A DNA stretch of 64,000 bases from Candidatus Omnitrophota bacterium (GTDB lineage: Bacteria > Omnitrophota > Gorgyraeia > Zapsychrales > Fredricksoniimonadaceae). A program made the translations under genes and the position numbers. The DNA is taken from NCBI GenBank assembly GCA_030650275.1, contig JAUSEK010000023.1, forward strand, positions 107,581 to 171,580, read 5' to 3'. A model generated the notes under the pieces. That model had not been told where the DNA came from, made no database searches, and worked only from the letters and a program-made list of their open reading frames with translations. Positions 4,637-61,128 of the stretch are shown here, piece after piece (position 1 is the stretch's first letter; each line of letters begins with the position of its first letter).

Positions 4637-4700
4637 GCCTGCCAGGCGGGATCATACAAAAACGTTGGCTCAAGTTTAATAAAGAGGAGGTATCAAAGAA

Positions 4701-30634: not shown

Positions 30635-30679
30635 TGACAAAGGCTATTTAGTAAGATTTGTATCATTGGAGGAATGGTC

Positions 30680-32029
30680 ATGAGCGCTAAGTTTGAAAAG
30701 TTAAATATTTTCTTCGATAGAATAAAAACTATTGGATTTTTTCAAAGAATATTCCAGTGGCGTCAGATTAGCAATTTAAGTCATGATGCTTATCGAGAAT
30801 TTAAGGAGCTGGAGAGATTGTTTGAGGATACGACCACAAGGATCAACGAATTAAATAAATCAACAGAACTTTCGAGTGTTGAAAATGATCGTCTTAAGTC
30901 AGAGAAAATAAAATTAGAGAATTTGTTGAAGTCTGGGGTAGAGAAATTGGAGGATACTAAGGGAGAGGTTTCCGATTTAAAGGCTTCGATTGCTTCGAAA
31001 GACGAAAAAATAAGTTCGTTAACGGAACAAATTAAAAAAGAGGCGATTGAATTAGCCGTATTGAAAGAAAAAACAAGCCTGCTTGAACAAGAAATGCAGA
31101 AAATTAAGCAAGAAAATACAAAATATGAACAGACCGAGGCTGGCCGGTTGGCTAAACATGGTAATGAGATGGCAACAATTATAACCATCAGAGATCAAAT
31201 CCAAAGCGACAGAAAGAAAGAGATAGAGGAACATCAGGCAAATGAGATTGCTCGTATAGAAGCGATGAAGGAAACCTGGAGCAAACATCAGGAAAAGGTC
31301 AAGAATACTATCAAATCAATATGTCAAAAACATGCCATAGAGTATTTGGATCAAGTTCCTTTTAAGGGAAGCCCTGATAACACAGTTAAGATTTGTGATG
31401 AATTTGTTATTTTTGATGCCAAAAGTCCTTCTTCGGATGATTTGGGAAATTTTCCGGTCTATATCAAAGCTCAGACTGAGGCGGTGAAGAAGTATATAAA
31501 AGAGGAAAATGTGCGCAAAGATATTTTTCTTGTAGTTCCTTCGAATACCGTCGATGTTATTGAACAGTTCAGCTATAACATGGCTGACTACAACGTTTAT
31601 ATAATCACTATCAATGTGCTCGAGCCGCTTATGTTGCTTGTTAAGAAGCTCGAAGATTATGAATTTGTTAATCAATTAAGCCCAGAAGAGCGGGAAGATA
31701 TTTGTAGAATCATTGGTAAGTTTGCTTACATGACAAAAAGAAGAATACAAATCGATCATTTTTTTACCCGACAATTTCTTGAAATACTTGCTAAATGTGA
31801 AGCTGGTCTTCCAGGAGAGATACTTGACAGGGTGGCTGCATTCGAACAATCTGAGAAATTGAATCCTCCTCAAGAGAAGCGTGCAAAACAGATTCTCATC
31901 AAAGATTTAGAAAAGGATGATCAGAAAATTCAGAAAGAGGCCGAAGCAAAGAGTGTTGTGTTTCCTTTATCATTGTCGCGCAATATCAAGAACATTCCGC
32001 TCTATGAAGGGGAAGAATCGGTCTCGTAA
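30680..32029 (+). CDS. RmuC-family DNA recombination protein-like (AT-rich, probably horizontally acquired)
   Basis: An N-terminal ~200-aa coiled coil is followed by a C-terminal region matching RmuC motifs (DEFVIFDAKSP, KKYIKE, DIFLVVPSNTV, NVYIITINVLEPLMLL). A GGAGGA Shine-Dalgarno lies 8 nt upstream. Local GC is about 35% against about 58% for its neighbours. Confidence 0.5.
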   Translation: MSAKFEKLNIFFDRIKTIGFFQRIFQWRQISNLSHDAYREFKELERLFEDTTTRINELNKSTELSSVENDRLKSEKIKLENLLKSGVEKLEDTKGEVSDLKASIASKDEKISSLTEQIKKEAIELAVLKEKTSLLEQEMQKIKQENTKYEQTEAGRLAKHGNEMATIITIRDQIQSDRKKEIEEHQANEIARIEAMKETWSKHQEKVKNTIKSICQKHAIEYLDQVPFKGSPDNTVKICDEFVIFDAKSPSSDDLGNFPVYIKAQTEAVKKYIKEENVRKDIFLVVPSNTVDVIEQFSYNMADYNVYIITINVLEPLMLLVKKLEDYEFVNQLSPEEREDICRIIGKFAYMTKRRIQIDHFFTRQFLEILAKCEAGLPGEILDRVAAFEQSEKLNPPQEKRAKQILIKDLEKDDQKIQKEAEAKSVVFPLSLSRNIKNIPLYEGEESVS

Positions 32030-32741: not shown

Positions 32742-33533
32742 ATGTATATCGTCGTTTTGGTCACAGCCAAGGATGCAAAAGAAGCGCACAAGATCGCCAA
32801 CGGTCTTTTGCAGGACAAGTTGGTCGCCTGCGCCAATATCGTTGCGGGCGTGCGGTCTTTGTTTTGGTGGCGGGCACAAGTGGATTCATCCAAAGAAGCA
32901 TTGCTTATCCTCAAAACAAAGAAGGCCTTGTTCAAAAAAGTCGTCGCCAAAGTCAAGGTGCTGCACAGTTATGAGGTCCCGGAGATCATCGCTTTGCCCA
33001 TTGTTGCAGGCAGCAGCGATTATTTAAAATGGATCAAAACGTTGGTCTCCATCATATTTGTCGGGATGGTCCTGTCCGCGCCTTCTTTAGCGCCGGCCAT
33101 GAGCAATATGCCGGAGGGGACTTCAGAAATATCTTTGGTGGGCAAGGCCGCTTATGACGTGACCCTGCCGACGGCTTTGGGTGAGCAGAAGTCGCTGTCG
33201 CAGGCGCGGGAAGGCAAGAAAGCGGTGCTGTTCTTCTGGGCCACCTGGTGTCCTCATTGCCGCGATGAGATCACGCGCATGAACAAGAACCTCGATGCCA
33301 TCACCGCCAAGGGGATCAAGGTCGTTTTGGTGTCCATCGGGGAAACGAAAGAGGATGTGGCGGCTTATTTAAAGCGCAATGCCGTTGTGCTGGACAGTTT
33401 CTTGGATGAGGACAATGCTTTGCAGGGACCGTATGATCTGGTCGGCGTTCCGACGCTGGTCTTCGTGGATGAAAAGGGCGTTATCCGCGAGGTGCGCCAC
33501 GATTTTCCCGATGATTACGAGAAATTTTTTTAG
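32742..33533 (+). CDS. CutA1 divalent-cation tolerance domain fused via a TM segment to a TlpA/ResA-like thioredoxin-fold domain
   Basis: Residues 1-~105 match CutA (...VACANI..G..S.YWW...LKT...EVPEIIALPI..G...YLKWI). A hydrophobic segment follows, then a thioredoxin domain with the WCPHC active site. Confidence 0.7.
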   Translation: MYIVVLVTAKDAKEAHKIANGLLQDKLVACANIVAGVRSLFWWRAQVDSSKEALLILKTKKALFKKVVAKVKVLHSYEVPEIIALPIVAGSSDYLKWIKTLVSIIFVGMVLSAPSLAPAMSNMPEGTSEISLVGKAAYDVTLPTALGEQKSLSQAREGKKAVLFFWATWCPHCRDEITRMNKNLDAITAKGIKVVLVSIGETKEDVAAYLKRNAVVLDSFLDEDNALQGPYDLVGVPTLVFVDEKGVIREVRHDFPDDYEKFF

Positions 33534-35002
33534 CGGCGGATCTTGTCTTTGACGTTGCTCTGCAGTTTTGCTTCCAGTTTTAACCTGGTCACAAAAGCCG
33601 TCAGGATCTGGCTGCGTTTGCGCGCGCTGAGCATTTGCCGGTAATTGTCTTTCTCGCCTTCAAAATCTTCGTCTTTGACTTTCACGACACTGCTCAAATA
33701 AGCGATGGCCGGCCCTTGGGGCGTTGCCACCGTGTCCGTCAGCCGGTTATTTTCCTCCAACTTTAAACTCGCTTCTTGCAATTGCGCGGCAAATCCCAAA
33801 GCCGGGTTATATTCCCCGTGGCTGAATTCCGGCGTTTGCCGGACATCCAAGTTCAGCGCCTGGCAGGATGTCTTGAAATCTTTTCCCGTCGCGACGCTTT
33901 CCTTGATCGATCTTAGAACTTCCTCGGCTTTGGCCTGCGCTTTTGCATACGCTTTTTGTGCGATCACGGTTTTTTGTACCGCTTCTTTGATCACTGCCAG
34001 GTCAGGGACGGCTGAATCCTTATGTTCTTTGACCCTGGCGATCTGCCATCCGTCGGGCATTTCCAAAAGCGGGGTGGTGGCGCCCGCCTTCATGGCAAAA
34101 AGTTTTTCCACCAGGTCCGGCGACCAGGCGAAGGTCAGCAGGGGCTGGTCCTTGGTGAATGGTCCGCTTTCCTTTGCCTCGTAACCGGCTTGTTTGGCCG
34201 CGGCCACAAAGTCCGCGGACGGCGTTAACGCTTTGGCAAAGGCCTGCGCTTCTTTTTTGTCCGGCAGGGCAATGATGACGTATTGCACGTTCACCGTGGC
34301 CGGCGCGCGCAAGGTCTCCGCATTCCGGTCATAATATTCTTTAATTTCTTTTTCCGACGCCTCGAGCCCGGCGCTAAAGTCCGCGGGGTTGATGATGACA
34401 TAATCCAATCTGATCTTTTCATTGCGCCTGGCATATTCCTGTTTGACCTCATCATCAGCAATGACCATGGGTCCGGTAACGCCGTCGAGCATTTTTTTGA
34501 TCATCAATCTGTTGCGCATGCCTTCCTCGAAGTCATGGGGTTTACGGCCGAAGGCGCCGGGATTGCGGACAAGTTCCTCATACAGATAGCGGTCGAACCT
34601 ACCTTCCCGTTGAAAGAAGGGAAAGGCCGCGATCAAGGCCGCCACTTCTGCGTCGCTGACCTTGATGCCGCGTTTTTTGGCTTCCCGCGACAGGATGAGG
34701 CGGTCCCAGGCCTCGTTTTCCAAATCCAGCCTGTCGCCTAATTTGGAGAGTTGATCGCCGTAGAGGATGAGCGCCTGGTCGCGGCTGTCCATGTAGGCGC
34801 GTTCGAAATCCCGCAAAGAAACGCTTTGGCCGTAAATTTTTCCGGCGCTGTTGGTGCTGTCCCAGCCCGAAGCCGCGCCGAAGACCCCGAAAGACAGGAC
34901 AATGATGACCGTGATGAACCACAGCACTTTTTTGGACACGCCCTTGTGGCGCAGGATGCTAAGCATATCGGTGATTATAGACGATGGCCTAAATTTTGAC
35001 AA
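33530..35002 (-). CDS. PpiD/SurA-like periplasmic chaperone with N-terminal TM anchor
   Basis: It has a TM helix, a SurA-N-like domain and a degenerate parvulin-like domain. Its stop overlaps the stop of the convergent CutA–TlpA gene by 4 nt. Confidence 0.6.
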   Translation of the reverse strand: MSKFRPSSIITDMLSILRHKGVSKKVLWFITVIIVLSFGVFGAASGWDSTNSAGKIYGQSVSLRDFERAYMDSRDQALILYGDQLSKLGDRLDLENEAWDRLILSREAKKRGIKVSDAEVAALIAAFPFFQREGRFDRYLYEELVRNPGAFGRKPHDFEEGMRNRLMIKKMLDGVTGPMVIADDEVKQEYARRNEKIRLDYVIINPADFSAGLEASEKEIKEYYDRNAETLRAPATVNVQYVIIALPDKKEAQAFAKALTPSADFVAAAKQAGYEAKESGPFTKDQPLLTFAWSPDLVEKLFAMKAGATTPLLEMPDGWQIARVKEHKDSAVPDLAVIKEAVQKTVIAQKAYAKAQAKAEEVLRSIKESVATGKDFKTSCQALNLDVRQTPEFSHGEYNPALGFAAQLQEASLKLEENNRLTDTVATPQGPAIAYLSSVVKVKDEDFEGEKDNYRQMLSARKRSQILTAFVTRLKLEAKLQSNVKDKIRR

Positions 35003-35106
35003 GAATTAAGACGGAAAACGCTTTCCCAATAAGCCGGTCTTGGGCTTGTTTTTTTGTGTTTTATAGTAAATACTTATACATGAACCCTAATAGATATATC
35101 TAACAT

Positions 35107-38097
35107 ATGAACCCCTTGTTCCGCCAGATCATTTGCTCTATTTTGACCGTTACGTTTGCGTTAACAGCGGTCCCGCCTCTGCACGCCCAAGAGATTTACC
35201 TGCCCCAACCCGGCGTCCGCATTGGCCTAAGCCCCCAATTCAACCCCGCCGTCCTCAAAGGCCTCAAGGTCCATCCCGACAATCCGTTTCGGTTTGATTT
35301 CATATTGGATACCGGTGACGTAGAGACGCAGCATGCTGCGTCTCTACAAAACGAATCAATGAAATTGATCAAATATTTCCTCGCCTCTTTAACCATCCCC
35401 GAACAAGACCTCTGGGTCAACCTGTCTCCTTATGAGAAGGATAGAATTGTTCCTCAATCCTTTGGTCAAACCGAGATGGGACGTGACCTATTAGCCCAGG
35501 ATTATCTGCTCAAGCAGATCACCGCATCACTAATCTACCCAGAGGATGAATTCGGCAAGATCTTCTGGAAGAGGGTCTATGAAGAAGCCAACAAGAGATT
35601 TGGAACAACCAACATCCCGGTCAATACCTTCAACAAGGTCTGGATCGTGCCAGAGAAGGCCGTAGTCTATGAGAACGCGCAAGCAGGCACGGCGTATGTG
35701 GTAGAAAGCCGATTGAAGGTGATGTTGGAAGAGGATTATCTTGCCTTGGCCAACAACCAACCGCCTACCAGGGGACATGTTCCGCAGAACGTGTCCCCAA
35801 GCACCCTGCCAACCTATCAACCATTGAATCCGAAAGCATCCCAGGGAAATCCCCTTAACGCCTCACCAGAGATTAACGCATTAGGTTCTCAAATAGTCAG
35901 AGAGATTGTCATTCCCGCATTAACCAAAGAAATCAACGAAAACAAGAACTTTGCCCAACTAAGACAGGTCTACAACTCCCTTATCTTGGCCACCTGGTAC
36001 AAGAAGAAGATCAAGGACAGCATTCTCTCTCAAGTGTATGCAGATAAGAATAAGATTTCAGGCCTAACGCCAACCAGGGGACATGTTGCTGGCACCGCTA
36101 GTGCCAGTAACGTGTCCCCAAGCACGTTGCCAACCAACCCAGCATTGAATGCGAAAGCACCCCAGGGAAACCCGCCCAACGATGTCGAAGCCATCTACCA
36201 GCAATACCTCACCGCCTTCAAGAAAGGGGTCTACAACTACATCAAAGAAGAGCAGGACCCTGTGACCCGACAGATGATTCCAAGGAAGTATTTTTCGGGT
36301 GGCGTGAAATTCGGTGATGTGGCGATGGTGACTACAAAGGATGCGGCCATGCTTCCGCAGGTGGCTTCCGATCACTCCGCTATTGTTCAGACAAATTTAA
36401 ATCCAGCTGGCCGGGCGATGGCGGCTATACAGGATTGGGAAAGAGTGCGTGCTCGGGCAAAAATTTCTTTCTTCGTCAAAACATTTTTTATTATGGGAGG
36501 GACGGTTATCGGTGCAAGTGCGTTTAAGCATTACAGTCAGAACGTATACGCGGTTCTCGCAATGGGGATGTTGTACGGCTTCACAACCTTCCGTTTTGTT
36601 ATGGACGACTACTTAATAGGAAAAAGTGAACGTGCTGGGGACTATATTACGATTTCAAGGCAACCGAAGGAAAGGGACTCTTTGGGTATTCATGTCGTCC
36701 TAAATTTAAAGGGGCTGGCCGGACAACAGGAGAACGCATATACACTTATCGCGGAAGATGTGGTTAAGGTTGTTTATGAGCTTGTTGCGAACTGGAAACA
36801 AGAGGGTGGGCTTAAAGAAGTAAAATATATTACAGGAGATTCCCCGTTGCTTGTTCAGGAGAGGAGGGGTATGGGAGCAAGGTTTATGCCTAGCATAAAG
36901 CGTCTGCTCAATAAGATCGGCGTGGGGGATGAGGATATTGAAGTGCACAAACGTCAAAGAACAGATAAAAGGCAGTTTATGTTGTGGAAGATATTGTATC
37001 CGCGTGTATGGATGATAAATAATAAAACATATAGTGGCAGATTCAGGATGAATGTTTCCACGCCCGAGGCTCAGCAGGCCTTGCTTGAAAAATTGAGACC
37101 TGTTTATGATGCGTTGAACGGCGTTGATCCTAATGATCCGGAAAAGATGGCCAAGAAAAGGCGAATTTTGTTCGGCGGGAGTTTGGCGCGGGATGAAGAA
37201 GCCCAAGTGGACGATGCCACAGCCTCCGTGCAGGCCGGGCCGGACGCGGCGATGTCAAGGTCACAACAGTCAGAAAATATTAAAAGCATTGCTGATTGGA
37301 TTGATGCTCTCAAGAAAGACAATTATGTTTTGTTCCACCAAACAATGGATGATTCAGCTGAAAGAATATTACAGAGTTATTTTAAAACCAGCCCTCAAAT
37401 TAATGGGATTGCCGCAGTATATACTCGAGAAATTTTGATGGGAAATCTTCAATGGATGTCTATGTCTGCGGGAGAATTTCAGAGACGTCGTTTGGAACAG
37501 GACGGTCCCCTCGGACAAATTCACAAAGGTGCAAATGCGATAGTTGTTCTTGTTTTTCCAAAAAAAGAATTCGGAGGCGTAGATCGTTTTATCCGACTTT
37601 TCGAAGTCTTTGAGATGATTGATGAAAAAATAGGCGGCGATTGGCTTCAAGAAACAGGAGGTATGGGTGTCCCCAATAAATATGTAGCTGGATATATCCA
37701 TCCCACTGATCAATCCATTGATGTGTATATAAATCCAAATAGCGTTGTTAAACCTTTATCTGATGAGCATTGGGGATTGTTAGGCGTTGGAAATGAAAAT
37801 TTGATTGTTTTAAGGGATCAGGCGATAAAAAGTGTTATGAGCAAACAATCCGGCCCTGGAGGTATTGACTTTAAATCCGACAAGGTGGACAGCGCTTTTG
37901 AAATAAAAAGAGAGCCGGAACAAATGGGGACACGTAACGAGTACATGTCCCCATTTGTCGACCCGGTCATGCTGGAGCAATTACAAAACGCCCCGGGGTT
38001 CGTGCCGGTGATCATCAACATCCAGCCCATGACGGATTTGCGGATGTTTTTGGGGCTTCAAGAAAATAAGCCGGAAAAAGAGGAGGCTGTGTTATAA
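35107..38097 (+). CDS. Large secreted protein (996 aa), paralog A: conserved N-terminal domain + variable middle + C-terminal GGIDFKSDKVDSAF...PGFVPVIIN module
   Basis: It has a Sec signal peptide (…ALTAVPPLHAQE). It is a paralog of the 55409..60343 product and contains an internal tandem repeat. Confidence 0.7.
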   Translation: MNPLFRQIICSILTVTFALTAVPPLHAQEIYLPQPGVRIGLSPQFNPAVLKGLKVHPDNPFRFDFILDTGDVETQHAASLQNESMKLIKYFLASLTIPEQDLWVNLSPYEKDRIVPQSFGQTEMGRDLLAQDYLLKQITASLIYPEDEFGKIFWKRVYEEANKRFGTTNIPVNTFNKVWIVPEKAVVYENAQAGTAYVVESRLKVMLEEDYLALANNQPPTRGHVPQNVSPSTLPTYQPLNPKASQGNPLNASPEINALGSQIVREIVIPALTKEINENKNFAQLRQVYNSLILATWYKKKIKDSILSQVYADKNKISGLTPTRGHVAGTASASNVSPSTLPTNPALNAKAPQGNPPNDVEAIYQQYLTAFKKGVYNYIKEEQDPVTRQMIPRKYFSGGVKFGDVAMVTTKDAAMLPQVASDHSAIVQTNLNPAGRAMAAIQDWERVRARAKISFFVKTFFIMGGTVIGASAFKHYSQNVYAVLAMGMLYGFTTFRFVMDDYLIGKSERAGDYITISRQPKERDSLGIHVVLNLKGLAGQQENAYTLIAEDVVKVVYELVANWKQEGGLKEVKYITGDSPLLVQERRGMGARFMPSIKRLLNKIGVGDEDIEVHKRQRTDKRQFMLWKILYPRVWMINNKTYSGRFRMNVSTPEAQQALLEKLRPVYDALNGVDPNDPEKMAKKRRILFGGSLARDEEAQVDDATASVQAGPDAAMSRSQQSENIKSIADWIDALKKDNYVLFHQTMDDSAERILQSYFKTSPQINGIAAVYTREILMGNLQWMSMSAGEFQRRRLEQDGPLGQIHKGANAIVVLVFPKKEFGGVDRFIRLFEVFEMIDEKIGGDWLQETGGMGVPNKYVAGYIHPTDQSIDVYINPNSVVKPLSDEHWGLLGVGNENLIVLRDQAIKSVMSKQSGPGGIDFKSDKVDSAFEIKREPEQMGTRNEYMSPFVDPVMLEQLQNAPGFVPVIINIQPMTDLRMFLGLQENKPEKEEAVL

Positions 38098-38106: not shown

Positions 38107-38652
38107 ATGGATTTCGAGGCGGTTTTTAAAATAATCCTGGGACAATTTGGCAAATATAACGTCCGTTTCGCGATCATAGGGGGTTTTGCCCTGCACGCGG
38201 CGGGTTTTACCAGGGCCACCAAAGACATTGATTTCCTGCTGCATCATGAAGACAAGGCGAAAGTCAAGGCAGTCCTTGCCTCTTTGGGGTATGAAGCCAT
38301 TCATGAAAGCGAGGACGCCGCGAATTTCTTGAATCGATTGTCCGAGTTGGGACAGATCGATTTTATCATAGCCCGTCGTAAATATGCGTTGGCGATGCTC
38401 GAACGCGCCAAGCCGTATGAGATCATTAAAGGGCATACGGTCAATGTCATTGTGCCGGAAGACATTATTGGTTTGAAGATCCAGGCCTTGCACAATGATC
38501 CCGCGCGGTATGCGCAGGACATGGCGGACATTCAATGGCTGATCAAAAATCACCGGGAACAGCTGAATGTGGGACTTTTACGGGAGTATTTTGATCTATT
38601 CAACTGTGCTGATCAATTGGAAAGAATTTTAAACGAGACCGACCATGCTTAG
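38107..38652 (+). CDS. Polβ-superfamily nucleotidyltransferase (AbiEii- / ANT(2'')-like minimal NTase)
   Basis: It has the GG-x9-R.T.DIDFL motif (FAIIGGFALHAAGFTRATKDIDFLL) and is 181 aa. Confidence 0.5.
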   Translation: MDFEAVFKIILGQFGKYNVRFAIIGGFALHAAGFTRATKDIDFLLHHEDKAKVKAVLASLGYEAIHESEDAANFLNRLSELGQIDFIIARRKYALAMLERAKPYEIIKGHTVNVIVPEDIIGLKIQALHNDPARYAQDMADIQWLIKNHREQLNVGLLREYFDLFNCADQLERILNETDHA

Positions 38653-54528: not shown

Positions 54529-55341
54529 GTGTTGGCTAATAAAACTATCGGCCTTATAGCTGGGAACAGGCAGTTCCCTTTTTTATTTGCCCGGGCCGCC
54601 AAAGACCAGGGTTACAAGGTCGTGGCCGCGGGGGTTTGGGGGGACACCTCCCCGCTATTGGCCGCGTTCGCCGACGATTTCCGGTATTTTTACGTCGGAC
54701 AGATGAAAAAGATGATCGCGTATTTTAAGGACAAGGGGGTCACGCAGGTCATCATGGCCGGACAGGTCAACCCCGATCATCTTTTCGATCCCCGTCTTGC
54801 CCTTGACGAAGAATTCGCTTCCCTGGAGGGATCCCTCAAAGACCGCAAGGCCGACACCATTTTTTCCGCCGTTGCCGGCAGATTGGGCGAACACGGCATG
54901 GCCTTGCTGGATTCAACATTCCTGCTCAAGAAATACCTGGCCCCCAAAGGCACATTGACCCACCGCGGTCCGACGCTGGCGGAACTGGCGGACATGGAAT
55001 TCGGCTTCACCATCGCCAAACTCATGGGCGGCATCGACGTCGGGCAGACGGTCGTGGTCAAGGAAAAGGCCATTGTCGCCATCGAGGCCATGGAAGGCAC
55101 GGACAATGCCATCGCACGCGGCGGCGCCATCGCGCGCGGCGGGGCCGTGGTGGTCAAGACCGCCAAACCCGCCCAGGACAACCGTTTTGATGTTCCTGTT
55201 GTGGGCCCGCAGACCATCCGCGTCATGGCCCGCGTCAAAGCCGCCTGCTTGAGCATTGAAGCCGGTAAGACCCTTCTCATTGACCGCGAAGCAACCGTCC
55301 GTCTGGCCGACCGTCACGGGATCTGCATCGTCGCTGCCTAG
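54529..55341 (+). CDS. lpxI: UDP-2,3-diacylglucosamine hydrolase LpxI (DUF1009 family), GTG start
   Basis: An AAGGAGG Shine-Dalgarno lies 4 nt upstream. It has the conserved N-terminus ...IGLIAGNRQFP... and the Lpx cluster context. Confidence 0.7.
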   Translation: MLANKTIGLIAGNRQFPFLFARAAKDQGYKVVAAGVWGDTSPLLAAFADDFRYFYVGQMKKMIAYFKDKGVTQVIMAGQVNPDHLFDPRLALDEEFASLEGSLKDRKADTIFSAVAGRLGEHGMALLDSTFLLKKYLAPKGTLTHRGPTLAELADMEFGFTIAKLMGGIDVGQTVVVKEKAIVAIEAMEGTDNAIARGGAIARGGAVVVKTAKPAQDNRFDVPVVGPQTIRVMARVKAACLSIEAGKTLLIDREATVRLADRHGICIVAA

Positions 55342-55408
55342 AAAACGCTTTCCCGAAAACCCCTCCAGGGCTTGTTTTAGGTGTATTTATATTCCATACT
55401 TGTAGTAT

Positions 55409-58400
55409 ATGAAATACCCCGTATTCCGTCGTTTAACCTGCGCTTTGGTCATTATTACCTTTACGGCAACGATGACCCCAGCTTTGCACGCACAGGAAAT
55501 TTCGCTTCCTCAGCCCGGCGTCCGCGTATCCTTAAGCCCCGCCTTTAACCCCCCAGTCCTCAAAGGCCTCAAGGTCCATTCCGATAATCCGTTTCGTTTT
55601 GATTTTATCCTTGATCAAGGTGATTCCCTCCCCCTTGTGGGGAGGGCCAGGGAGGGGGACAAACAAGAACAACTCAAACAAGAAGCCAACAAACTCATCA
55701 AATACTTCCTCGCCTCTCTGACCGTGCCAGAGAAAGACCTCTGGGTCAACCTCTCTCCCTATGAGAAAGACCGTATCGTCCCCACATCTTTCGGTCAAAC
55801 CGAGATGGGAAGGGATCTTCTGGCCCAGGACTATCTGCTTAAGCAAATAACCGCATCTCTGATCTATCCAGAGGATGAATTGGGTAAGACCTTCTGGAAC
55901 AGGATCTACCAAGAAGCATCCAGGAGATACCATACAACCAACATCCCGGTCAATACATTCAACAAGGTATGGATCGTACCCGAGAAAGCCGTAGTGTACG
56001 AGAACGCGCAGGCGGGAACGGCTTACGTTGTCGAATCCAGATTGAAGGTGATGCTAGAAGAAGATTATTTGGCATTATCCAAAAATACCGTAGGGGCGCA
56101 ATTTATTGCGCCCGATAAGGGTTCGATGAATCGAACCCCTACGGATGTTAATTCGTTGGGTTCCCAGATTATCCGTGAGATCGTCATCCCCGCCTTAACC
56201 AAGGAAATCAACGAAGGAAAGAACTTCGCCCAACTCCGTCAGGTCTACAATTCTCTGATCCTTGCCACCTGGTACAAGAAGAAGATCAAGGATAGTATTC
56301 TCAATAAAGTTTATTCCGATAGGAATAAAGTTTTAGGCATTGGTTACGATACGCCAACCAGGGGACATGTTGCTGGCACCGCCAGTGCCAGTAACGTGTC
56401 CCCAAGCACGCTGCCAAGCGACCCAGGGTTGAATGCGAAAGCACCCCAGGGAAACCCGCCCAACGATGTCGAAGCCATCTACCAGCAATACCTCACCGCC
56501 TTCAAGAAAGGCGTCTACAACTACATCAAAGAAGAACAAGATCCCATCACCCAACAGATTATCCCGAGGAAATATTTTTCGGGTGGTGTTAAATGGGGCA
56601 TGGCAATGCTTCAAACAACAACAGATCAGGCCATGCTCCCGCAAGTAGTTTCCGATCATGCCGCTATTGTTCAGACAAATTTAAATCCAGCCGACCGTGC
56701 GATATTCAGTAATATCACCAGTAGGGCTGATTCAGCAGCTGCTAGCCGAAGAATTCTATCGTTTAATCAAGCTAAAATGGCATTTGCCGACTTCTTGCTA
56801 GGCAGAGATGGAAAAAGCAAACAAATTGTTGATTTGCCAAGACTAGTGGATAGCCTCAATGCAATGAATAAACCTACAAGAGAAAAATTCCTAGAGTGGA
56901 CTGTGAATATGGATGATAATTGGTATCAGTATGGTTTATCCAATCATAGTAAAGCTAAATATCGTTCGCTGGCATTATTGTTAATGGAAATGGAAAGCCA
57001 TAACCGAAATGCTCCGGCTATGAAACTTTGGAATTTTCTTTCCCAACGGTTTGGAGCGTCTCGTTTTCACACAGAACAATGGGTATCTTGGCAACCTGCA
57101 ATTGACCAAAATCTGTTAAAGGATGTATTACGCATTGCGAAACGATATGGGCTGCGCGCTCATGGGACATTGAATTTTAACATGTTCGGGATCAATAAAT
57201 ATTCTGCTCTCAACGGTTTCTTTCAGAATGAATGGGGAATGCTTAATATCATGATCGATGGGAATCTGTCTCGGGGAAGCATTGGCCCTTTAGCGCCTGT
57301 TGAAGATGAAGGGAATCCGAATGTCGCGGCAGCATTATATGGCCCTTTTTATATTATTGTTGATAAACGTCAAGATGAAGTGCTGCCTGAGAGGCGTTTG
57401 AATGAGCATGACAGAGTTTCTCGAAAGGATCAGTTGATTTATCTTGTCCCAAGCGAAAAAGAAGTACTTTTTTTCAGTGAAGGTATTCGTGAAGCTTTGC
57501 ATTTGGGCCTCATTGATCAGGGAATCGCTGACGAGGTATTATCAAAACTTATGACGTATGGACAGTTCGTGATTAATCAAGCCGCATTGGCTAATCTTGA
57601 AACTCCCGGTGGCATCGACTTCAAATCTGATAAAGTGGACAGCGCCCAATTAAGCCAAGACCGGGCGATGATGACCAGACGAAATTTTCTGTCTTCGTCG
57701 GTTGCGGCAGGTATTGGACTGGTATTACCAAATGCCACCCTTGGGCAATCACTCGCAGGCTTTGGCAGGACGCCTATACCTGATAAACCAGATCAGGTCC
57801 AAGTACGATCTATTACAGGTTTTGAAACCCATGGCAATCGATACAATCTCACTTTTGAGGGGTTTAATCATAATCAGGGCGTAATAAAATCGGCGGGGCG
57901 GCAAGCGCGGGAAGTGGGTCATTTTAATTTCTTTATTTATCCCAATGGGGGATCGATACTAAGGATTGTCGGAGAATTCCCGGGGATCAATGAATCCGCG
58001 CACTTCTTTTCAGTTAACCGGGATCGGGATAAGATCAATTATATAGGCTCCACCGATAACTCTGCAGCGTTAGGGGATATTGCTTTAAACGAAGGGTTAT
58101 GGGTGCTTCTCGGTGAGTATTTAACGACAGGTTCTTTGCCTTCGGAATTTGACCAACAATTTAATATTTTATTTCCTCGTTGGGCGCCACTGAATTCTTT
58201 GACCGATCGATCGCCGTTTAATTTCTCAACAGGGCTCGTTAATGTTTTATCTCCGCGTTTTGTTCCTCCGGATGATAAAACGCTTTTGCTCGTCGGGCAG
58301 CAGCGAGACATCATTGAGGGTTATGTTCGCGCTGTTGGAGTGCCCGGTGGGTTTATGTCCTATACATCCATTAAACATTTGGAGGGATTAACCACGTTGG

Positions 58401-60343
58401 ATGATTACGGCGGCGGAATTCAAGATGCGCAGGACCTGGTTGATCTGTATCCGAATACCGTCTTACAACTTGGTTTGTACATGGTGGATGAATTGAATAA
58501 TGTAAATAGCGGTATATACGATGCGAATATTCGAAAGTTGGGGGAGTGGATCAAGCAAACAAGGCGTCCGGTGTATTTGCGCATTGGCTATGAATTTGAT
58601 TTGCCCGACAATAAGTATAAGCCGCAAGAATATATAAAGGCCTATCAAAAGATCGTCGACATATTGAGACAGCAAAAGGTAACGAATGTATCGTTTGTAT
58701 GGCATTCTGCAGTTTATCCGAGCCAAGAAAAATCTGCGCAGGACTGGTATCCGGGGGATGAATATGTTGATTGGGTCGCGATGACCCGTATGGATCCTTC
58801 ACAAGATTTACAAGGGACTCGGTTAGCTCAGTGGGCCAGAGGGCACAACAAACCTTTTATGATCGCGGAGGCATCTCCGATGGGTCGGAAGACTACGGAG
58901 GAAAAGAAAGTATGGTTCGACACTCTTTTGCCATTTATCAGACAAAACAATATCAAGGCCCTTGGGTATATCAACAGTAATTGGGATGCATTGGGTTTAT
59001 TTTGGGATAGGGGCTGGGGGGACCAGCAAGTGCAGAATGATCCGGCAATTCGTCAATTGTGGATGGACAGAGTCATCCAGGATGGTTCTTATTTGCAATC
59101 GTCAGCAGATCTATTCAGGCAATACCTCAATTTTAACCCAAGCCTTGACCGGGCGATGGCGGCCGCAGATCAGGCTGGGCCGGACGCGGCGATGAAGGTG
59201 ACGCGGCGTACTCTTTTGAGAGGCGCGGGCGCTACGGTGGCGGTGAGGGTATTGGAGGGGGCGTTTGGCAGCCTTGCACTGCAGGCAAGCGGGAACACCA
59301 ACGCTCCCGACAAGAATAGTGTTCTGGCGATGTCTTGGGATATCCTTGATAAGACGGCACTTCGGATGAATTTACCGAAAGCATTGCTTGAGAACATCAA
59401 GGCCGCGCTTCTGGAAGAGGCCACTAAAATATACTCAGAATACAAAGACACGCTTCCTCCAAGAGTACGCTCGATCCTCGGGGATGATTTTAGAAAGCCG
59501 GTTCCTTTTTACGCGCGGTGGCTTGTCAGCAGGTTTATCAAGAATGAGATCGAGCCAAGGATAAAATATCTCAGTAAATACACCGCCTTTCTTGACCCGG
59601 ATGAAGTGGGTATCTTAGATTCTGAGCCGGATTTGGTGAAATATTTCGTTAAAAGAACCGTGAGGTTATACGCTGAAAGAGGTCCGGATTGGATGACCGA
59701 GGAAGAAGCGGCTAAAAGCGTGATCGGTCTGTTTGCTTACTTGATCAAAGAAAGTAATGGCAAGTTTCCTCTTTCGCAGGAGGAAATTGGCAATTATTAT
59801 TATTTATTAAAGAGGGATAAACTCAATACCCTTACAGATTTCGATTTAAAGAATGTAAGGTTGGTGGAGGGTTATCGCGAAAGATTAAAGAAATATTACC
59901 GGATAAAATTTGCTCCGAATGAATTGCGTTGGGATATACAAAGTCAGAGAGGGGAAAGAGAGATTGTTCGGGTGGAATATCTACCGACCCATGATAATGT
60001 GCAAGTTATTGGATATGGTCTTGAAGAGTATAGTAAAATGGATCGTCGAGTGATCGCACTTTTGAGGTTGCGTGTTTATTTATCGGAGAAAAACGGGGGC
60101 GACCATCCGCAGACATCCACAGGCGGTATTGATTTCAATGCCGACAAGGTGGACAGCGCTTTTGCGGTGAAAAATAGCGGCGGCGCGATCAAATTTAACA
60201 TCGACCCCGCCATGCTCCAGCAATTACAGGATTCCCCCGGTTTCGTGCCCGTGATCATCAACGTCAGTCCGCTCAAAGACCTGCCTGCATTTTTGGGATC
60301 AAACGACCCTGTTCCAGTGTCTTCCAAAGCCGCTGCCCTTTAG
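55409..60343 (+). CDS. Large mosaic secreted protein (1644 aa), paralog B: paralog-A-like N-terminal unit + Tat-signal/GH26-like unit + Tat-signal/unknown unit with C-terminal GGIDFNADKVDSAF...PGFVPVIIN module
   Basis: It has a Sec signal peptide and a ~440-aa N-terminal domain homologous to 35107..38097. Internal twin-arginine signal-like segments start at 57668 (MMTRRNFLSS...) and 59204 (MKVTRRTLLRGAGATVAV...). GH26-like motifs (VYLRIGYEFD, WYPGDEYVDWV) are present. Confidence 0.65.
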   Translation: MKYPVFRRLTCALVIITFTATMTPALHAQEISLPQPGVRVSLSPAFNPPVLKGLKVHSDNPFRFDFILDQGDSLPLVGRAREGDKQEQLKQEANKLIKYFLASLTVPEKDLWVNLSPYEKDRIVPTSFGQTEMGRDLLAQDYLLKQITASLIYPEDELGKTFWNRIYQEASRRYHTTNIPVNTFNKVWIVPEKAVVYENAQAGTAYVVESRLKVMLEEDYLALSKNTVGAQFIAPDKGSMNRTPTDVNSLGSQIIREIVIPALTKEINEGKNFAQLRQVYNSLILATWYKKKIKDSILNKVYSDRNKVLGIGYDTPTRGHVAGTASASNVSPSTLPSDPGLNAKAPQGNPPNDVEAIYQQYLTAFKKGVYNYIKEEQDPITQQIIPRKYFSGGVKWGMAMLQTTTDQAMLPQVVSDHAAIVQTNLNPADRAIFSNITSRADSAAASRRILSFNQAKMAFADFLLGRDGKSKQIVDLPRLVDSLNAMNKPTREKFLEWTVNMDDNWYQYGLSNHSKAKYRSLALLLMEMESHNRNAPAMKLWNFLSQRFGASRFHTEQWVSWQPAIDQNLLKDVLRIAKRYGLRAHGTLNFNMFGINKYSALNGFFQNEWGMLNIMIDGNLSRGSIGPLAPVEDEGNPNVAAALYGPFYIIVDKRQDEVLPERRLNEHDRVSRKDQLIYLVPSEKEVLFFSEGIREALHLGLIDQGIADEVLSKLMTYGQFVINQAALANLETPGGIDFKSDKVDSAQLSQDRAMMTRRNFLSSSVAAGIGLVLPNATLGQSLAGFGRTPIPDKPDQVQVRSITGFETHGNRYNLTFEGFNHNQGVIKSAGRQAREVGHFNFFIYPNGGSILRIVGEFPGINESAHFFSVNRDRDKINYIGSTDNSAALGDIALNEGLWVLLGEYLTTGSLPSEFDQQFNILFPRWAPLNSLTDRSPFNFSTGLVNVLSPRFVPPDDKTLLLVGQQRDIIEGYVRAVGVPGGFMSYTSIKHLEGLTTLDDYGGGIQDAQDLVDLYPNTVLQLGLYMVDELNNVNSGIYDANIRKLGEWIKQTRRPVYLRIGYEFDLPDNKYKPQEYIKAYQKIVDILRQQKVTNVSFVWHSAVYPSQEKSAQDWYPGDEYVDWVAMTRMDPSQDLQGTRLAQWARGHNKPFMIAEASPMGRKTTEEKKVWFDTLLPFIRQNNIKALGYINSNWDALGLFWDRGWGDQQVQNDPAIRQLWMDRVIQDGSYLQSSADLFRQYLNFNPSLDRAMAAADQAGPDAAMKVTRRTLLRGAGATVAVRVLEGAFGSLALQASGNTNAPDKNSVLAMSWDILDKTALRMNLPKALLENIKAALLEEATKIYSEYKDTLPPRVRSILGDDFRKPVPFYARWLVSRFIKNEIEPRIKYLSKYTAFLDPDEVGILDSEPDLVKYFVKRTVRLYAERGPDWMTEEEAAKSVIGLFAYLIKESNGKFPLSQEEIGNYYYLLKRDKLNTLTDFDLKNVRLVEGYRERLKKYYRIKFAPNELRWDIQSQRGEREIVRVEYLPTHDNVQVIGYGLEEYSKMDRRVIALLRLRVYLSEKNGGDHPQTSTGGIDFNADKVDSAFAVKNSGGAIKFNIDPAMLQQLQDSPGFVPVIINVSPLKDLPAFLGSNDPVPVSSKAAAL

Positions 60344-60511: not shown

Positions 60512-60910
60512 ATGCGTTCGATCGTCGTTGATACTTCGGTTGTTTTGGCCGTTGCTTTGGGGGAACCAGAGAAGTTGAAGCTGGTTCGGATGACCAAAGG
60601 CGTTGCTTTATTGACCCCTGCTTCAATGAAATGGGAAATAGGTAACGCGCTTTCTGTTATGTTTAAGAAGAAACGGATCACGCTCAATGAAGCAAAGAAA
60701 GTTTGGGGCATTTGTATGGATATTCCGCTGCAATATGTGGATGTCGACCCTGTCAGGTCCCTTGAAATAGCTTTTGAGGGTGATCTGTATGCCTATGACG
60801 CGTATATGATCGCGTGCTGCCTTGAACGCAAGGCGCCATTATTAACGTTGGATCAGGTTTTATCGAAAAAGGCCGGGCTTTTTAACGTGTCCATGGAGGT
60901 TGTCATATGA
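60512..60910 (+). CDS. vapC: PIN-domain ribonuclease toxin (VapC-like)
   Basis: It starts MRSIVVDTSVV... with the conserved acidic residues of the PIN fold. It is 132 aa. Confidence 0.7.
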   Translation: MRSIVVDTSVVLAVALGEPEKLKLVRMTKGVALLTPASMKWEIGNALSVMFKKKRITLNEAKKVWGICMDIPLQYVDVDPVRSLEIAFEGDLYAYDAYMIACCLERKAPLLTLDQVLSKKAGLFNVSMEVVI

Positions 60911-61128
60911 AAATTTTTACCTATTCTCAATTTCGTCAAAAACTTGCCACCATTCTTGACTTAGCGCGCAGGGAAGGGCGGGTCATGATCAAACGCAAGG
61001 ATGGCTCCTTGTTTAATTTGTCCCCCGCAAGGCGCAACAACGGATCGCCTCTGGATGTGCGTTCGCTTAAAACAAAAGTCACGACCGTTGATATTATCAA
61101 CAGTGTCCGTGAAAGCCGTCAGCAGTAA
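60907..61128 (+). CDS. Phd/YefM-like antitoxin, encoded downstream of the toxin (reversed order)
   Basis: 73 aa. Its start overlaps the PIN stop as ATGA. The N-terminus MKIFTYSQFRQKLATILD... is typical of Phd/YefM. Confidence 0.45.
   Translation: MKIFTYSQFRQKLATILDLARREGRVMIKRKDGSLFNLSPARRNNGSPLDVRSLKTKVTTVDIINSVRESRQQ

Follow-up and report, generated by a model that had tools for sequence, protein, structure and literature searches.

The overall kind of protein treated here, in which modular payloads recombine, is already known. In cargo proteins of the type IX secretion system (T9SS) of Bacteroidota, an N-terminal Sec leader and a variable middle precede a conserved C-terminal domain (CTD) of 70-100 aa, and there is no shared N-terminal domain. 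Boundary peptides have been recognised in other modular proteins, namely VENN in CdiA and PxxxxDPxGL in Rhs. These polymorphic toxins (Rhs, CdiA and MafB) join a constant trafficking part to modules that are swapped by recombination (Zhang et al. 2012, PMC3482391). MARTX toxins (Vibrio RtxA) have constant ends around a recombining central array of effectors, with cleavage between the effectors at short sites (PMC4453568, PMC6315884, PMC5218395); they carry glycine-rich repeats and an InsP6-activated internal cysteine protease that cleaves after Leu, and they leave by type I secretion with no N-terminal Sec leader. Giant proteins of 10,000-147,000 aa with many transmembrane helices and C39/S8 peptidase domains are found in Omnitrophota, and a gene for a Rotamase_2 peptidyl-prolyl isomerase (PPIase) lies near their genes (West-Roberts et al. 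2023, bioRxiv 10.1101/2023.11.21.568195; bioRxiv 10.64898/2026.06.07.730766). The question of their cleavage has been raised, the cleavage points not being known (bioRxiv 10.1101/2023.11.21.568195). Here we analyse a stretch of 64,000 nt from a Candidatus Omnitrophota bacterium (assembly GCA_030650275.1, contig JAUSEK010000023.1, positions 107,581-171,580), the whole of which we call the window, and in it an open reading frame (ORF), ORF B (55409-60343, + strand), that encodes 1644 aa.

The NCBI record of the ORF B product (MDO8675787.1, on a 325-kb contig) names it 'glycosyl hydrolase', a label that covers only about one fifth of the protein. An initial annotation of this DNA had pointed out two internal twin-arginine (RR) leaders, a GH26-type domain and strings repeated at the junctions, all of which are present in ORF B where they had been placed. 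ORF B proves to be intact and to belong to a large protein family confined to Omnitrophota, in which cassettes are exchanged between two constant modules, and the repeated strings encode a short peptide motif of the cassette boundaries.

Constant ends and exchanged cassettes

Searches with the N-terminal module of ORF B (N-module) gave 1618 homologues at E<=1e-5, and those that carry a name come almost all from metagenome-assembled genomes (MAGs) of Candidatus Omnitrophica/Omnitrophota. A genome scan with one genome per species gave more than 595 matching stretches, with at least seven in single MAGs. As a family sample we fetched 80 loci, which hold 88 family ORFs of 660-3165 aa. The members share one order: a Sec-type leader, an N-module of about 390 aa that ends in KYFSGG, from zero to many unrelated gene-sized cassettes, and a C-terminal module (C-module) of about 75 aa. 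In ORF B the N-module signature WVNLSPYE…MGRDLLA…KYFSGG is present behind a Sec-type leader, and aa 1-393 show 50-80% identity to the 1618 proteins and the 88 locus ORFs. The C-module signature GGID(F/L)…IKFxxDPAM…LQNAPGFxPVIINIxP…FLG lies within about 75 aa of the stop, which aa 1572-1644 of ORF B fit, and nearly every complete family ORF has the module about 60 aa ahead of its stop. At the lower end of the range, a 438-aa database member has its N-module joined straight to its C-module with no cargo at all. A three-cassette ORF of 1644 aa is unremarkable for this family.

Neither constant module has a match in Pfam, NCBIfam, PADLOC or PHROGs, and profile searches of PDB sequences with them returned low-complexity noise only; the N-module resembles no known sequence or fold. 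A single domain split between the N- and C-modules was considered and found no support, because the C-module is modelled at low confidence. Literature searches, motif strings included, found no description of the family, which is apparently undescribed, and its constant modules and boundary motif are new as far as databases and literature show.

The GH26 domain gives the clearest view of a single cassette. With the Pfam model GH26 (PF02156), ORF B reaches 23.4 bits (cut-off 20.2) over aa 1070-1125 only, and aa ~950-1244 show 45-51% identity (E down to 3e-95) to hundreds of stand-alone Omnitrophota proteins of about 320 aa that carry PF02156 and ordinary Sec-type leaders, which bears out the GH26-like unit of the initial annotation. 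RIGYEFD and MIAE(A/S) are kept in every aligned copy, and with them one Glu in each (MIAEAS being the second motif in ORF B), the putative catalytic pair of a (beta/alpha)8 clan GH-A fold. The stand-alone proteins stop at …LGYxP, exactly where the embedded copies run on with (SL)D(R/A)AM (SLDRAM in ORF B), which implies that ORF B is a chain of gene-sized units. The earlier view that several secreted-protein genes had been fused does not hold for every unit: cassette B1, the first of ORF B, has no leader, and most cassettes of the family carry enzymes of cytoplasmic type.

The GH26 domain does not travel alone. Ahead of it stands a beta-rich domain of about 170 aa, B2N, which among 1.84 billion representative proteins occurs only in ORF B, in the 1630-aa family member P0243 (53% identity) and in a fragment, P0244 (48%). 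The whole run of RR leader, B2N and GH26 recurs in P0243, whose N-module is 80% and whose second cassette is 58% identical to those of ORF B (the latter over 522 aa); its first and third cassettes bear no relation to B1 and B3. Hence the Tat-like leader, the beta-rich domain and GH26 are one cassette, which moves as a unit with its RR leader kept. A more distant GH26 copy is embedded in another family member, L052 (38% identity). The stand-alone relatives that had been proposed were found for GH26 alone: no free-standing gene with Tat leader, B2N and GH26 was found among the 1.84 billion representatives, a metagenome scan for such a donor returned only the ordinary GH26 genes of about 320 aa, and the third unit, cassette B3, had no homologue at E<=1e-3 in a word-indexed search of 5.8 billion proteins and no match in the 80 family loci. 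B1 gave no match in a Pfam scan; its C-terminal half recurs in about 40 other proteins of 170-5800 aa, with 58% identity to one of 1535 aa. Self-comparison of ORF B and of the second family member in the window, paralog A, found no internal repeats.

Recombination moves cassettes between paralogs, between loci and between genomes, which makes the middle hypervariable and leaves the ends constant. Shared cargo was seen in just 8 of 3828 pairs of family ORFs, always at different positions. The chromosomal slot between LpxI and LysRS, which holds the 1644-aa ORF B here, is filled in other MAGs by genes for 2978, 1172 and 1331 aa with unrelated cargo. The slot between SurA and HisG holds the 996-aa paralog A with its cassettes A1 and A2, and in a close relative (HisG 96% and PPIase 84% identical to those of the window) the GH26-bearing gene of P0243. 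The neighbours of the latter (Cu-oxidase_4, CutA1, AhpC, a divergent SurA-like PPIase, then the gene itself, HisG, TPR and GHMP kinase) are those of paralog A in the window, so the GH26 cassette stands in ORF B in the one genome and in the slot of paralog A in the other. This gene (P0243/P0283) was recovered on five contigs with five different sample or assembly accessions (ENA, JGI, NCBI), as two versions (4893 and 4896 nt), and contigs of one version differ by 0-1 nt.

Base composition gives a similar picture. The GC content at third codon positions (GC3) is 0.68-0.75 in neighbouring housekeeping genes, 0.56-0.61 in the constant N- and C-modules and 0.30-0.50 in the cassettes, and it differs between adjacent cassettes to give a mosaic. 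Fusion by recombination, as the initial annotation had it, is thus upheld by the gene-sized units, the mosaic GC3 and the cassette in common with P0243; the event is neither recent nor peculiar to ORF B, since multi-cassette ORFs are the norm. This is long-standing cassette shuffling, neither a recent accident nor an artefact. Orthologs of the same architecture lacking Tat motifs, which had been named as a counter-case, were not what we found: the architecture recurs with its RR leaders kept.

Some further observations concern individual members. Set against the more than 595 genome matches, three IMG/VR contigs classed as viral (L161, L162 and L163) hold members with N-modules 49-51% identical to that of ORF B; they may be prophage-adjacent regions or misclassified Omnitrophota contigs. 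In L024 (9800-12600) the cargo consists of many tandem units of about 50 aa (…EEELRLKETEGGLKLSEKFQMIVAGYQVSLGKAEGLNTFKETIK…) that run through all three frames, with the C-module in another frame, and either assembly collapse or slippage-prone repeats would account for it. L017 has one in-frame stop (4689-4691), beyond which the same frame stays open for about 790 aa and ends in a normal C-module; a pseudogene, a sequencing error or read-through might each explain it. Both came up when natural split versions were sought, and neither is informative, as the L017 stop is not at a boundary and the L024 repeats are frame-shifted. An in-frame insert of about 105 nt, present once in ORF B and twice in paralog A, encodes P(T/A)RGHV…NVSPSTLP…LN(A/P)KAPQGNP and sits in different surface loops of the N-module and, in L030, L054, L055 and L057, at three different loop positions. 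Every copy contains an inverted repeat of 12-19 nt (GGGGACATGTTGCTGGCAC / GTGCCAGTAACGTGTCCCC), and it looks like a small palindromic mobile element tolerated in frame.

The boundary motif and the leaders behind it

Two junctions in ORF B had drawn attention to the locus. Junction 1 (nt 57605-57751) reads PGGIDFKSDKVDSA (aa 733-746), QLSQDRAM (747-754) and MTRRNFLSSSVAAGIGLVLPNATLGQS (755-781), and junction 2 (aa 1240-1295, nt 59126-59293) reads LNFNP, SLDRAM (1245-1250), AAADQAGPDAAM (1251-1262) and KVTRRTLLRGAGATVAVRVLEGAFGSLALQASG. Two copies of the string GACCGGGCGATG, at 57659 and 59147, are joined by a third in paralog A (36409) that has one mismatch. Its three matches compare with 0.52 expected, but 2 of 100 shuffles also reached at least three, so this repeat alone is marginal. 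A second string, GGGCCGGACGCGGCGATG, is exact at 37237 and 59177 (expected 0.00), and the second half of the junction 2 linker is common to paralog A at 37222-37254. Beyond their ends, A and B otherwise share only this linker (ASVQAGPDAAM / AADQAGPDAAM) and a 14-aa piece of C-module inside ORF B.

What these strings have in common is that they encode [D/N]-x-A-M, which is a peptide-level boundary signal of the family; where A and B are identical over longer nucleotide runs, the shared linker is the reason. ORF B has five D-x-A-M copies (DQAM at aa 406, DRAM at 751, DRAM at 1247, DAAM at 1259 and DPAM at 1599). The 88 family ORFs hold 165 copies, against 10.3±3.3 in composition-preserving shuffles. 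The density in family ORFs is 1.48 per 1000 aa, and the remaining ORFs of these loci, 133,624 aa in all, reach 0.11. Within the window the motif is confined to A and B. It is frequent in further family members, and seven non-family proteins of 4,000-5,800 aa have 0-2 copies each (0-0.4 per 1000 aa).

The first residue is enriched 15.5-fold for D, 4.9-fold for N, 2.2-fold for S and 1.5-fold for E. The Met, 43-fold over background, is not replaceable by Leu, Ile or Val, and small residues flank the motif. An order of D > N > S with E not enriched is that of a peptide signal and not of an RNA signal, since GAR shares GA with GAY. Codon choice for the motif Asp matches background, and the Ala position draws on all four of its codons, with GCG and GCC somewhat above background; no purine-rich stretch was seen 5' of the motif ATG. 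A DNA-level recombination site at the junctions was accordingly rejected, as the enrichment tracks residue chemistry and synonymous positions vary at background; the junction micro-homologies of the initial annotation are not traces of recombination as such.

The position of the motif fits a boundary. [DN]xAM follows KYFSGG within 90 aa in 60 of 78 family ORFs. In the members that were checked (L052, L072, L045 and L042), Pfam domains lie between motifs and never across them: L052 runs GH26, DRAM, GNAT, DEAM, and the domains concerned are APH in L072 and UPF0489 in L045.

At both junctions of ORF B the motif is followed by a leader. Leader 1 consists of TRRNFL, SSSVAAGIGLVLP and ATLGQS, and leader 2 of TRRTLL, GAGATVAV… and ALQASG, so that both fit the Tat pattern of RR motif, moderately hydrophobic h-region and A-x-A-like end. 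The gathering score of the Pfam TAT_signal model is 22.7 bits, and the match reaches 22.6 in context, and 18.5 (leader 1) and 17.8 (leader 2) when the leaders are scanned alone; no NCBIfam TAT model matched. The 'textbook Tat signal' of the initial annotation is therefore an overstatement: the leaders are Tat-like and score just below the threshold or below it. None of about 25 window ORFs scanned with Pfam, a set that leaves out most of 1-30 kb and 50.7-52.3 kb, was TatA or TatC. The leaders start at aa 755 and 1262 rather than at the protein N-terminus, and it would take cleavage or internal initiation to place them at one.

Such leaders recur elsewhere. RR stands 2-26 residues after the Met of D-x-A-M in ORF B (twice), P0243, P0244, L052, L010 and L009. 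The P0244 fragment reads DAAM-TDQAM-ISPWRKDIRRHLNNLLLAG and then B2N, and L052 reads DHAM…GWSRRKFIRTAALAAGALG, its GH26 domain, NFDPDRAM and a GNAT cassette. In L010 the RR leader is close behind the motif (DRAM-SSDMGRRQFLSKLG), and L009 (PSDAAM-VTRRKLLRG, …PSDAAMVTRRKLLRG…) has linker and leader as at B3 with unrelated sequence downstream. L073 (…DAGM-SPEERLFNRNATRRQFLTGLV) has RR 13 residues past the Met and lacks the motif Ala, and in L005 no Met comes just ahead of the RR leader. RR and an h-region are kept in each of four cassette copies (GH26 or B2N) that have diverged to 38-58% identity. In L033 and L060 it is Sec-like leaders that come immediately behind the motif.

Junction 1 also keeps a relic of a C-module start. 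Its peptide is that of paralog A and the two differ at synonymous sites only, which implies selection over time and fits an old recombination scar kept under selection. An internal GGID is found in the family member L028 as well.

Processing of the chain and rival explanations

The reading to which we lean, by a small degree, is that of a shuffled cassette family whose chain is processed at D-x-A-M. Its architectural part is close to certain; its processing part, deduced from motif and leader positions, is about evenly balanced. The D-x-A-M motifs would be recognised or processed, so that the chain would be divided there into its cassettes and each would become a separate protein that begins with the Met region. 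Such a cut would put the Met, and a Tat- or Sec-like leader 2-26 residues further on, at a new working N-terminus, and we infer that without such disassembly the internal leaders would make no sense. The two constant modules, which occur in every paralog whatever its cargo, would be an export or delivery part, and the cassettes a variable enzyme payload. This cargo includes protein kinases, GNAT, APH-type kinases, an SNF2 helicase with Helicase_C, methyltransferases, NUDIX, adenylate-kinase-like and glycosyltransferase domains, and GH26; most of what can be named depends on cytoplasmic cofactors though it stands behind a Sec-type leader.

A number of points weigh against this. All of the support is from MAG sequences, which makes the cleavage a predicted one. 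No protease domain was found in the constant modules with Pfam or NCBIfam, and no neighbour gene for a protease or secretion system is conserved across the 80 loci. The motif lies within 45 aa before the C-module in just 29 of 56 ORFs, and it is not obligatory between domains, as in L007, where some 1960 aa of cargo have it at the two ends only. Hydrophobic leaders follow the motif at a rate of 10.8%, against 10.6% at random cargo positions, which is no general enrichment; the Tat-like leaders score below the Pfam threshold, and the structure model of the C-module is of low confidence. Finally, a Tat leader freed after Sec export would be on the wrong side of the producer membrane.

An explanation that we consider possible though unlikely is an unprocessed, Sec-exported envelope protein of many domains, with its enzymes strung between N- and C-terminal anchoring or sorting domains and kept whole in the periplasm or at the cell surface. 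D-x-A-M would then be a structural linker or a motif bound by a chaperone or export factor, and the leaders relics or weak membrane-associating segments inherited from captured genes. The missing protease, the long cargo stretches with no motif and the scarcity of leaders behind the motif (about 9 in 130) speak for it, as do the secreted GH26 relatives and the resemblance of a Sec leader, variable middle and conserved C-terminal domain of about 75 aa to C-terminal-sorting-domain cargo. However, kinases, GNAT, SNF2 helicase and methyltransferases need ATP, acetyl-CoA, SAM or DNA and would be idle outside the cytoplasm; a relic leader should decay, whereas RR is kept in four diverged cassette copies; and a Met so strictly conserved (43-fold) is hard to explain in a mere linker.

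A more speculative form of the processed chain, to which we give little weight, has enzyme arrays delivered into the prey or host cells of putatively predatory or parasitic nanobacteria and cut at D-x-A-M there. The N- and C-modules would transfer the chain from the producer into the target, where the kinases, GNAT, SNF2 helicase and methyltransferases would act in the cytoplasm, and leader-bearing cassettes such as the GH26 unit of ORF B would be re-exported by translocases of the target and attack its envelope from within.

The motif Met might also be an internal start codon, from which a cassette would be translated separately with any leader N-terminal; this would make each ORF an operon within one reading frame and the long read-through product secondary. 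There is an ATG at every boundary, A follows it in 50%, as at many true starts, and the absence of an internal Shine-Dalgarno sequence is not telling, since the annotated starts of A and B have none either. We nevertheless hold this to be very improbable, as the residues encoded 5' of the ATG are constrained by their chemistry (D > N > S, no enrichment of E), the upstream purine-rich stretch was not found, and no stop or spacer separates cassettes in the 88 ORFs, apart from one in-frame stop away from a boundary. A recent accidental fusion, a lost stop codon or a contig-specific assembly chimera, for which one could cite that the paralogous ends, at 72-92% DNA identity, could in principle mislead an assembler and that ORF B is known from one contig only, is scarcely credible when the junctions lie in unique sequence outside long repeats, the relic C-module start differs from that of paralog A at synonymous sites only, and the cassette of leader, B2N and GH26 stands between D-x-A-M motifs in a 1630/1631-aa gene (P0243/P0283) on five contigs and, as leader and GH26, in L052.

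Omnitrophota are uncultured, ultra-small and probably host-dependent bacteria, and their long multi-domain proteins are an open puzzle. D-x-A-M offers a testable candidate processing code of four residues, which, together with the conserved internal leaders in a phylum of unexplained multi-domain proteins, makes follow-up worthwhile. The family is abundant and multi-paralog, and its hypervariable cargo changes between close relatives at the same chromosomal slot. If processing is real, this would be a new bacterial way to package and diversify enzyme payloads and a handle on host interaction; if delivery holds as well, D-x-A-M would be the first candidate cleavage code for multi-domain Omnitrophota proteins. 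Should processing go unconfirmed, the family is still a clean example of in-frame cassette shuffling.

Paralog A, neighbouring genes and known systems

The features of both paralogs and of their surroundings are collected in Table 1.

Table 1. Features of ORF B, paralog A and neighbouring genes (positions in the window)
Feature	Positions	Strand	Basis
451-aa coiled-coil ORF	30674-32029		
SurA_N + Rotamase_2 PPIase gene	33530-35002	-	
Paralog A, 996 aa	35107-38097	+	
Paralog A N-module, ends NLNPAGRAM	35107-36420	+	
~105-nt insert, first copy in paralog A	35757-35860		
~105-nt insert, second copy in paralog A	36063-36181		
Cassette A1, two hydrophobic helices, ends QAGPDAAM	36421-37254	+	
Cassette A2, GC3 0.30	37255-37851	+	
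Paralog A C-module	37852-38094	+	
AbiEii-type nucleotidyltransferase toxin gene (PF08843)	38107-38652		
Upstream region common to paralog A (35014-35106), promoter-like, no Shine-Dalgarno	55341-55408	+	repeat family and pairwise alignment
ORF B Sec-type N-terminal leader (aa 1-28, ...PALHA/QE)	55409-55492	+	read from sequence; leader type in all aligned members
N-module, family-defining domain (aa 1-393, ends PRKYFSGG)	55409-56587	+	
~105-nt insert in ORF B	56347-56465		
N-module tail: first D-x-A-M (DQAM, aa 406-409) and degenerate DRAI (aa 429-432)	56588-56704	+	
Cassette B1 (aa 433-732), no leader, GC3 0.36	56705-57604	+	
Relic of C-module start (PGGIDFKSDKVDSA, aa 733-746)	57605-57646	+	repeat family; B vs A BLAST 698-759 / 888-944
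Linker QLSQDRAM with D-x-A-M (junction 1)	57647-57670	+	
Tat-like leader 1 (MTRRNFLSSSVAAGIGLVLPNATLGQS, aa 755-781)	57671-57751	+	Pfam TAT_signal; RR kept in P0243, P0244, L052
Domain B2N (aa 782-949), beta-rich	57752-58255	+	
GH26-type glycoside hydrolase domain (aa 950-1244)	58256-59140	+	Pfam GH26 and homologues
Double linker SLDRAM-AAADQAGPDAAM, two D-x-A-M motifs (junction 2)	59141-59194	+	
Tat-like leader 2 (M KVTRRTLLRGAGATVAVRVLEGAFGSLALQASG, aa 1262-1295)	59192-59293	+	Pfam TAT_signal, sub-threshold
Cassette B3 (aa 1296-1565), orphan	59294-60103	+	
C-module, lead-in from aa 1566; proper GGIDFNADKVDSAF…IKFNIDPAMLQQLQDSPGFVPVIINVSP…FLG = aa 1572-1644	60104-60340	+	
PIN-domain toxin gene	60512-60910		
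73-aa ORF overlapping the PIN gene	60907-61128		

Paralog A is 73% identical to ORF B over the N-terminal ~430 aa and 47% over the C-terminal ~75 aa; the C-module of ORF B is closer to that of P0243 (68%). After GRAM, A1 opens with two hydrophobic helices (36421-36600, A aa 439-500; …ISFFVKTFFIMGGTVIGASAF…VYAVLAMGMLYGFTTFRFV…) and has a weak NCBIfam match to CrcB; it would be a membrane-spanning cassette inside an exported protein. About 70 nt 5' of both paralogs are conserved (GAAAACGCTTTCCC…GGGCTTGTTTT…TTTATA…ATACTT, with no Shine-Dalgarno sequence), probably a shared promoter or leader duplicated with the gene.

A toxin-type gene lies directly 3' of both paralogs. The AbiEii-type gene stands between paralog A and HisG, and is an insertion here, because HisG directly follows the family gene in the close relative (L164-L168). 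The PIN-domain gene stands between ORF B and LysRS and is likely to form a toxin-antitoxin pair with the 73-aa ORF that it overlaps; in L069, LysRS follows the family gene within about 130 nt. The PPIase gene is divergent beside paralog A and is kept in the relative. The coiled-coil ORF has a GC content of 0.37 and a GC3 of 0.37 in a genome of 55% GC and no solid Pfam match, and at its place in L167 there is a 348-aa ORF with an RmuC domain.

Among known systems, the nearest analogues of the family are MARTX and polymorphic toxins. Cargo with a T9SS-type CTD is alike in having a Sec leader, a variable middle and a conserved C-terminal domain, and no NCBIfam or Pfam model of that CTD matched the C-module. 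With MARTX the family shares conserved ends round a recombination-varied array of unrelated enzymes. It differs from MARTX in its Sec-type leader and its D-x-A-M motif, and in that cleavage is only inferred; Pfam and NCBIfam gave no repeat match in the N- or C-module of the kind of the glycine-rich A/B/C repeats, and Pfam scans of A, B and 19 further members or cargo regions gave no Peptidase_C80 match. Type I secretion is likewise absent from the picture here.

The likeness to polymorphic toxins lies in the short boundary peptide, the many paralogs and the foreign base composition of the variable parts. Those toxins have a variable C-terminal tip and an immunity gene, whereas the family has a constant C-terminus with several cassettes in mid-chain, and most of its cargo is not recognisable as toxin. 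No immunity-like gene follows the family genes; downstream are an AbiEii-like gene, PIN with the 73-aa ORF, HisG or LysRS. Compared with the giant Omnitrophota proteins, the family is small (0.4-3.2 kaa) and has N- and C-modules of its own. Like them, it belongs to the same phylum and chains unrelated enzyme domains (methyltransferase, HATPase, HAD, GNAT-like) behind leaders, and, as beside the giant genes, a Rotamase_2 PPIase gene adjoins paralog A.

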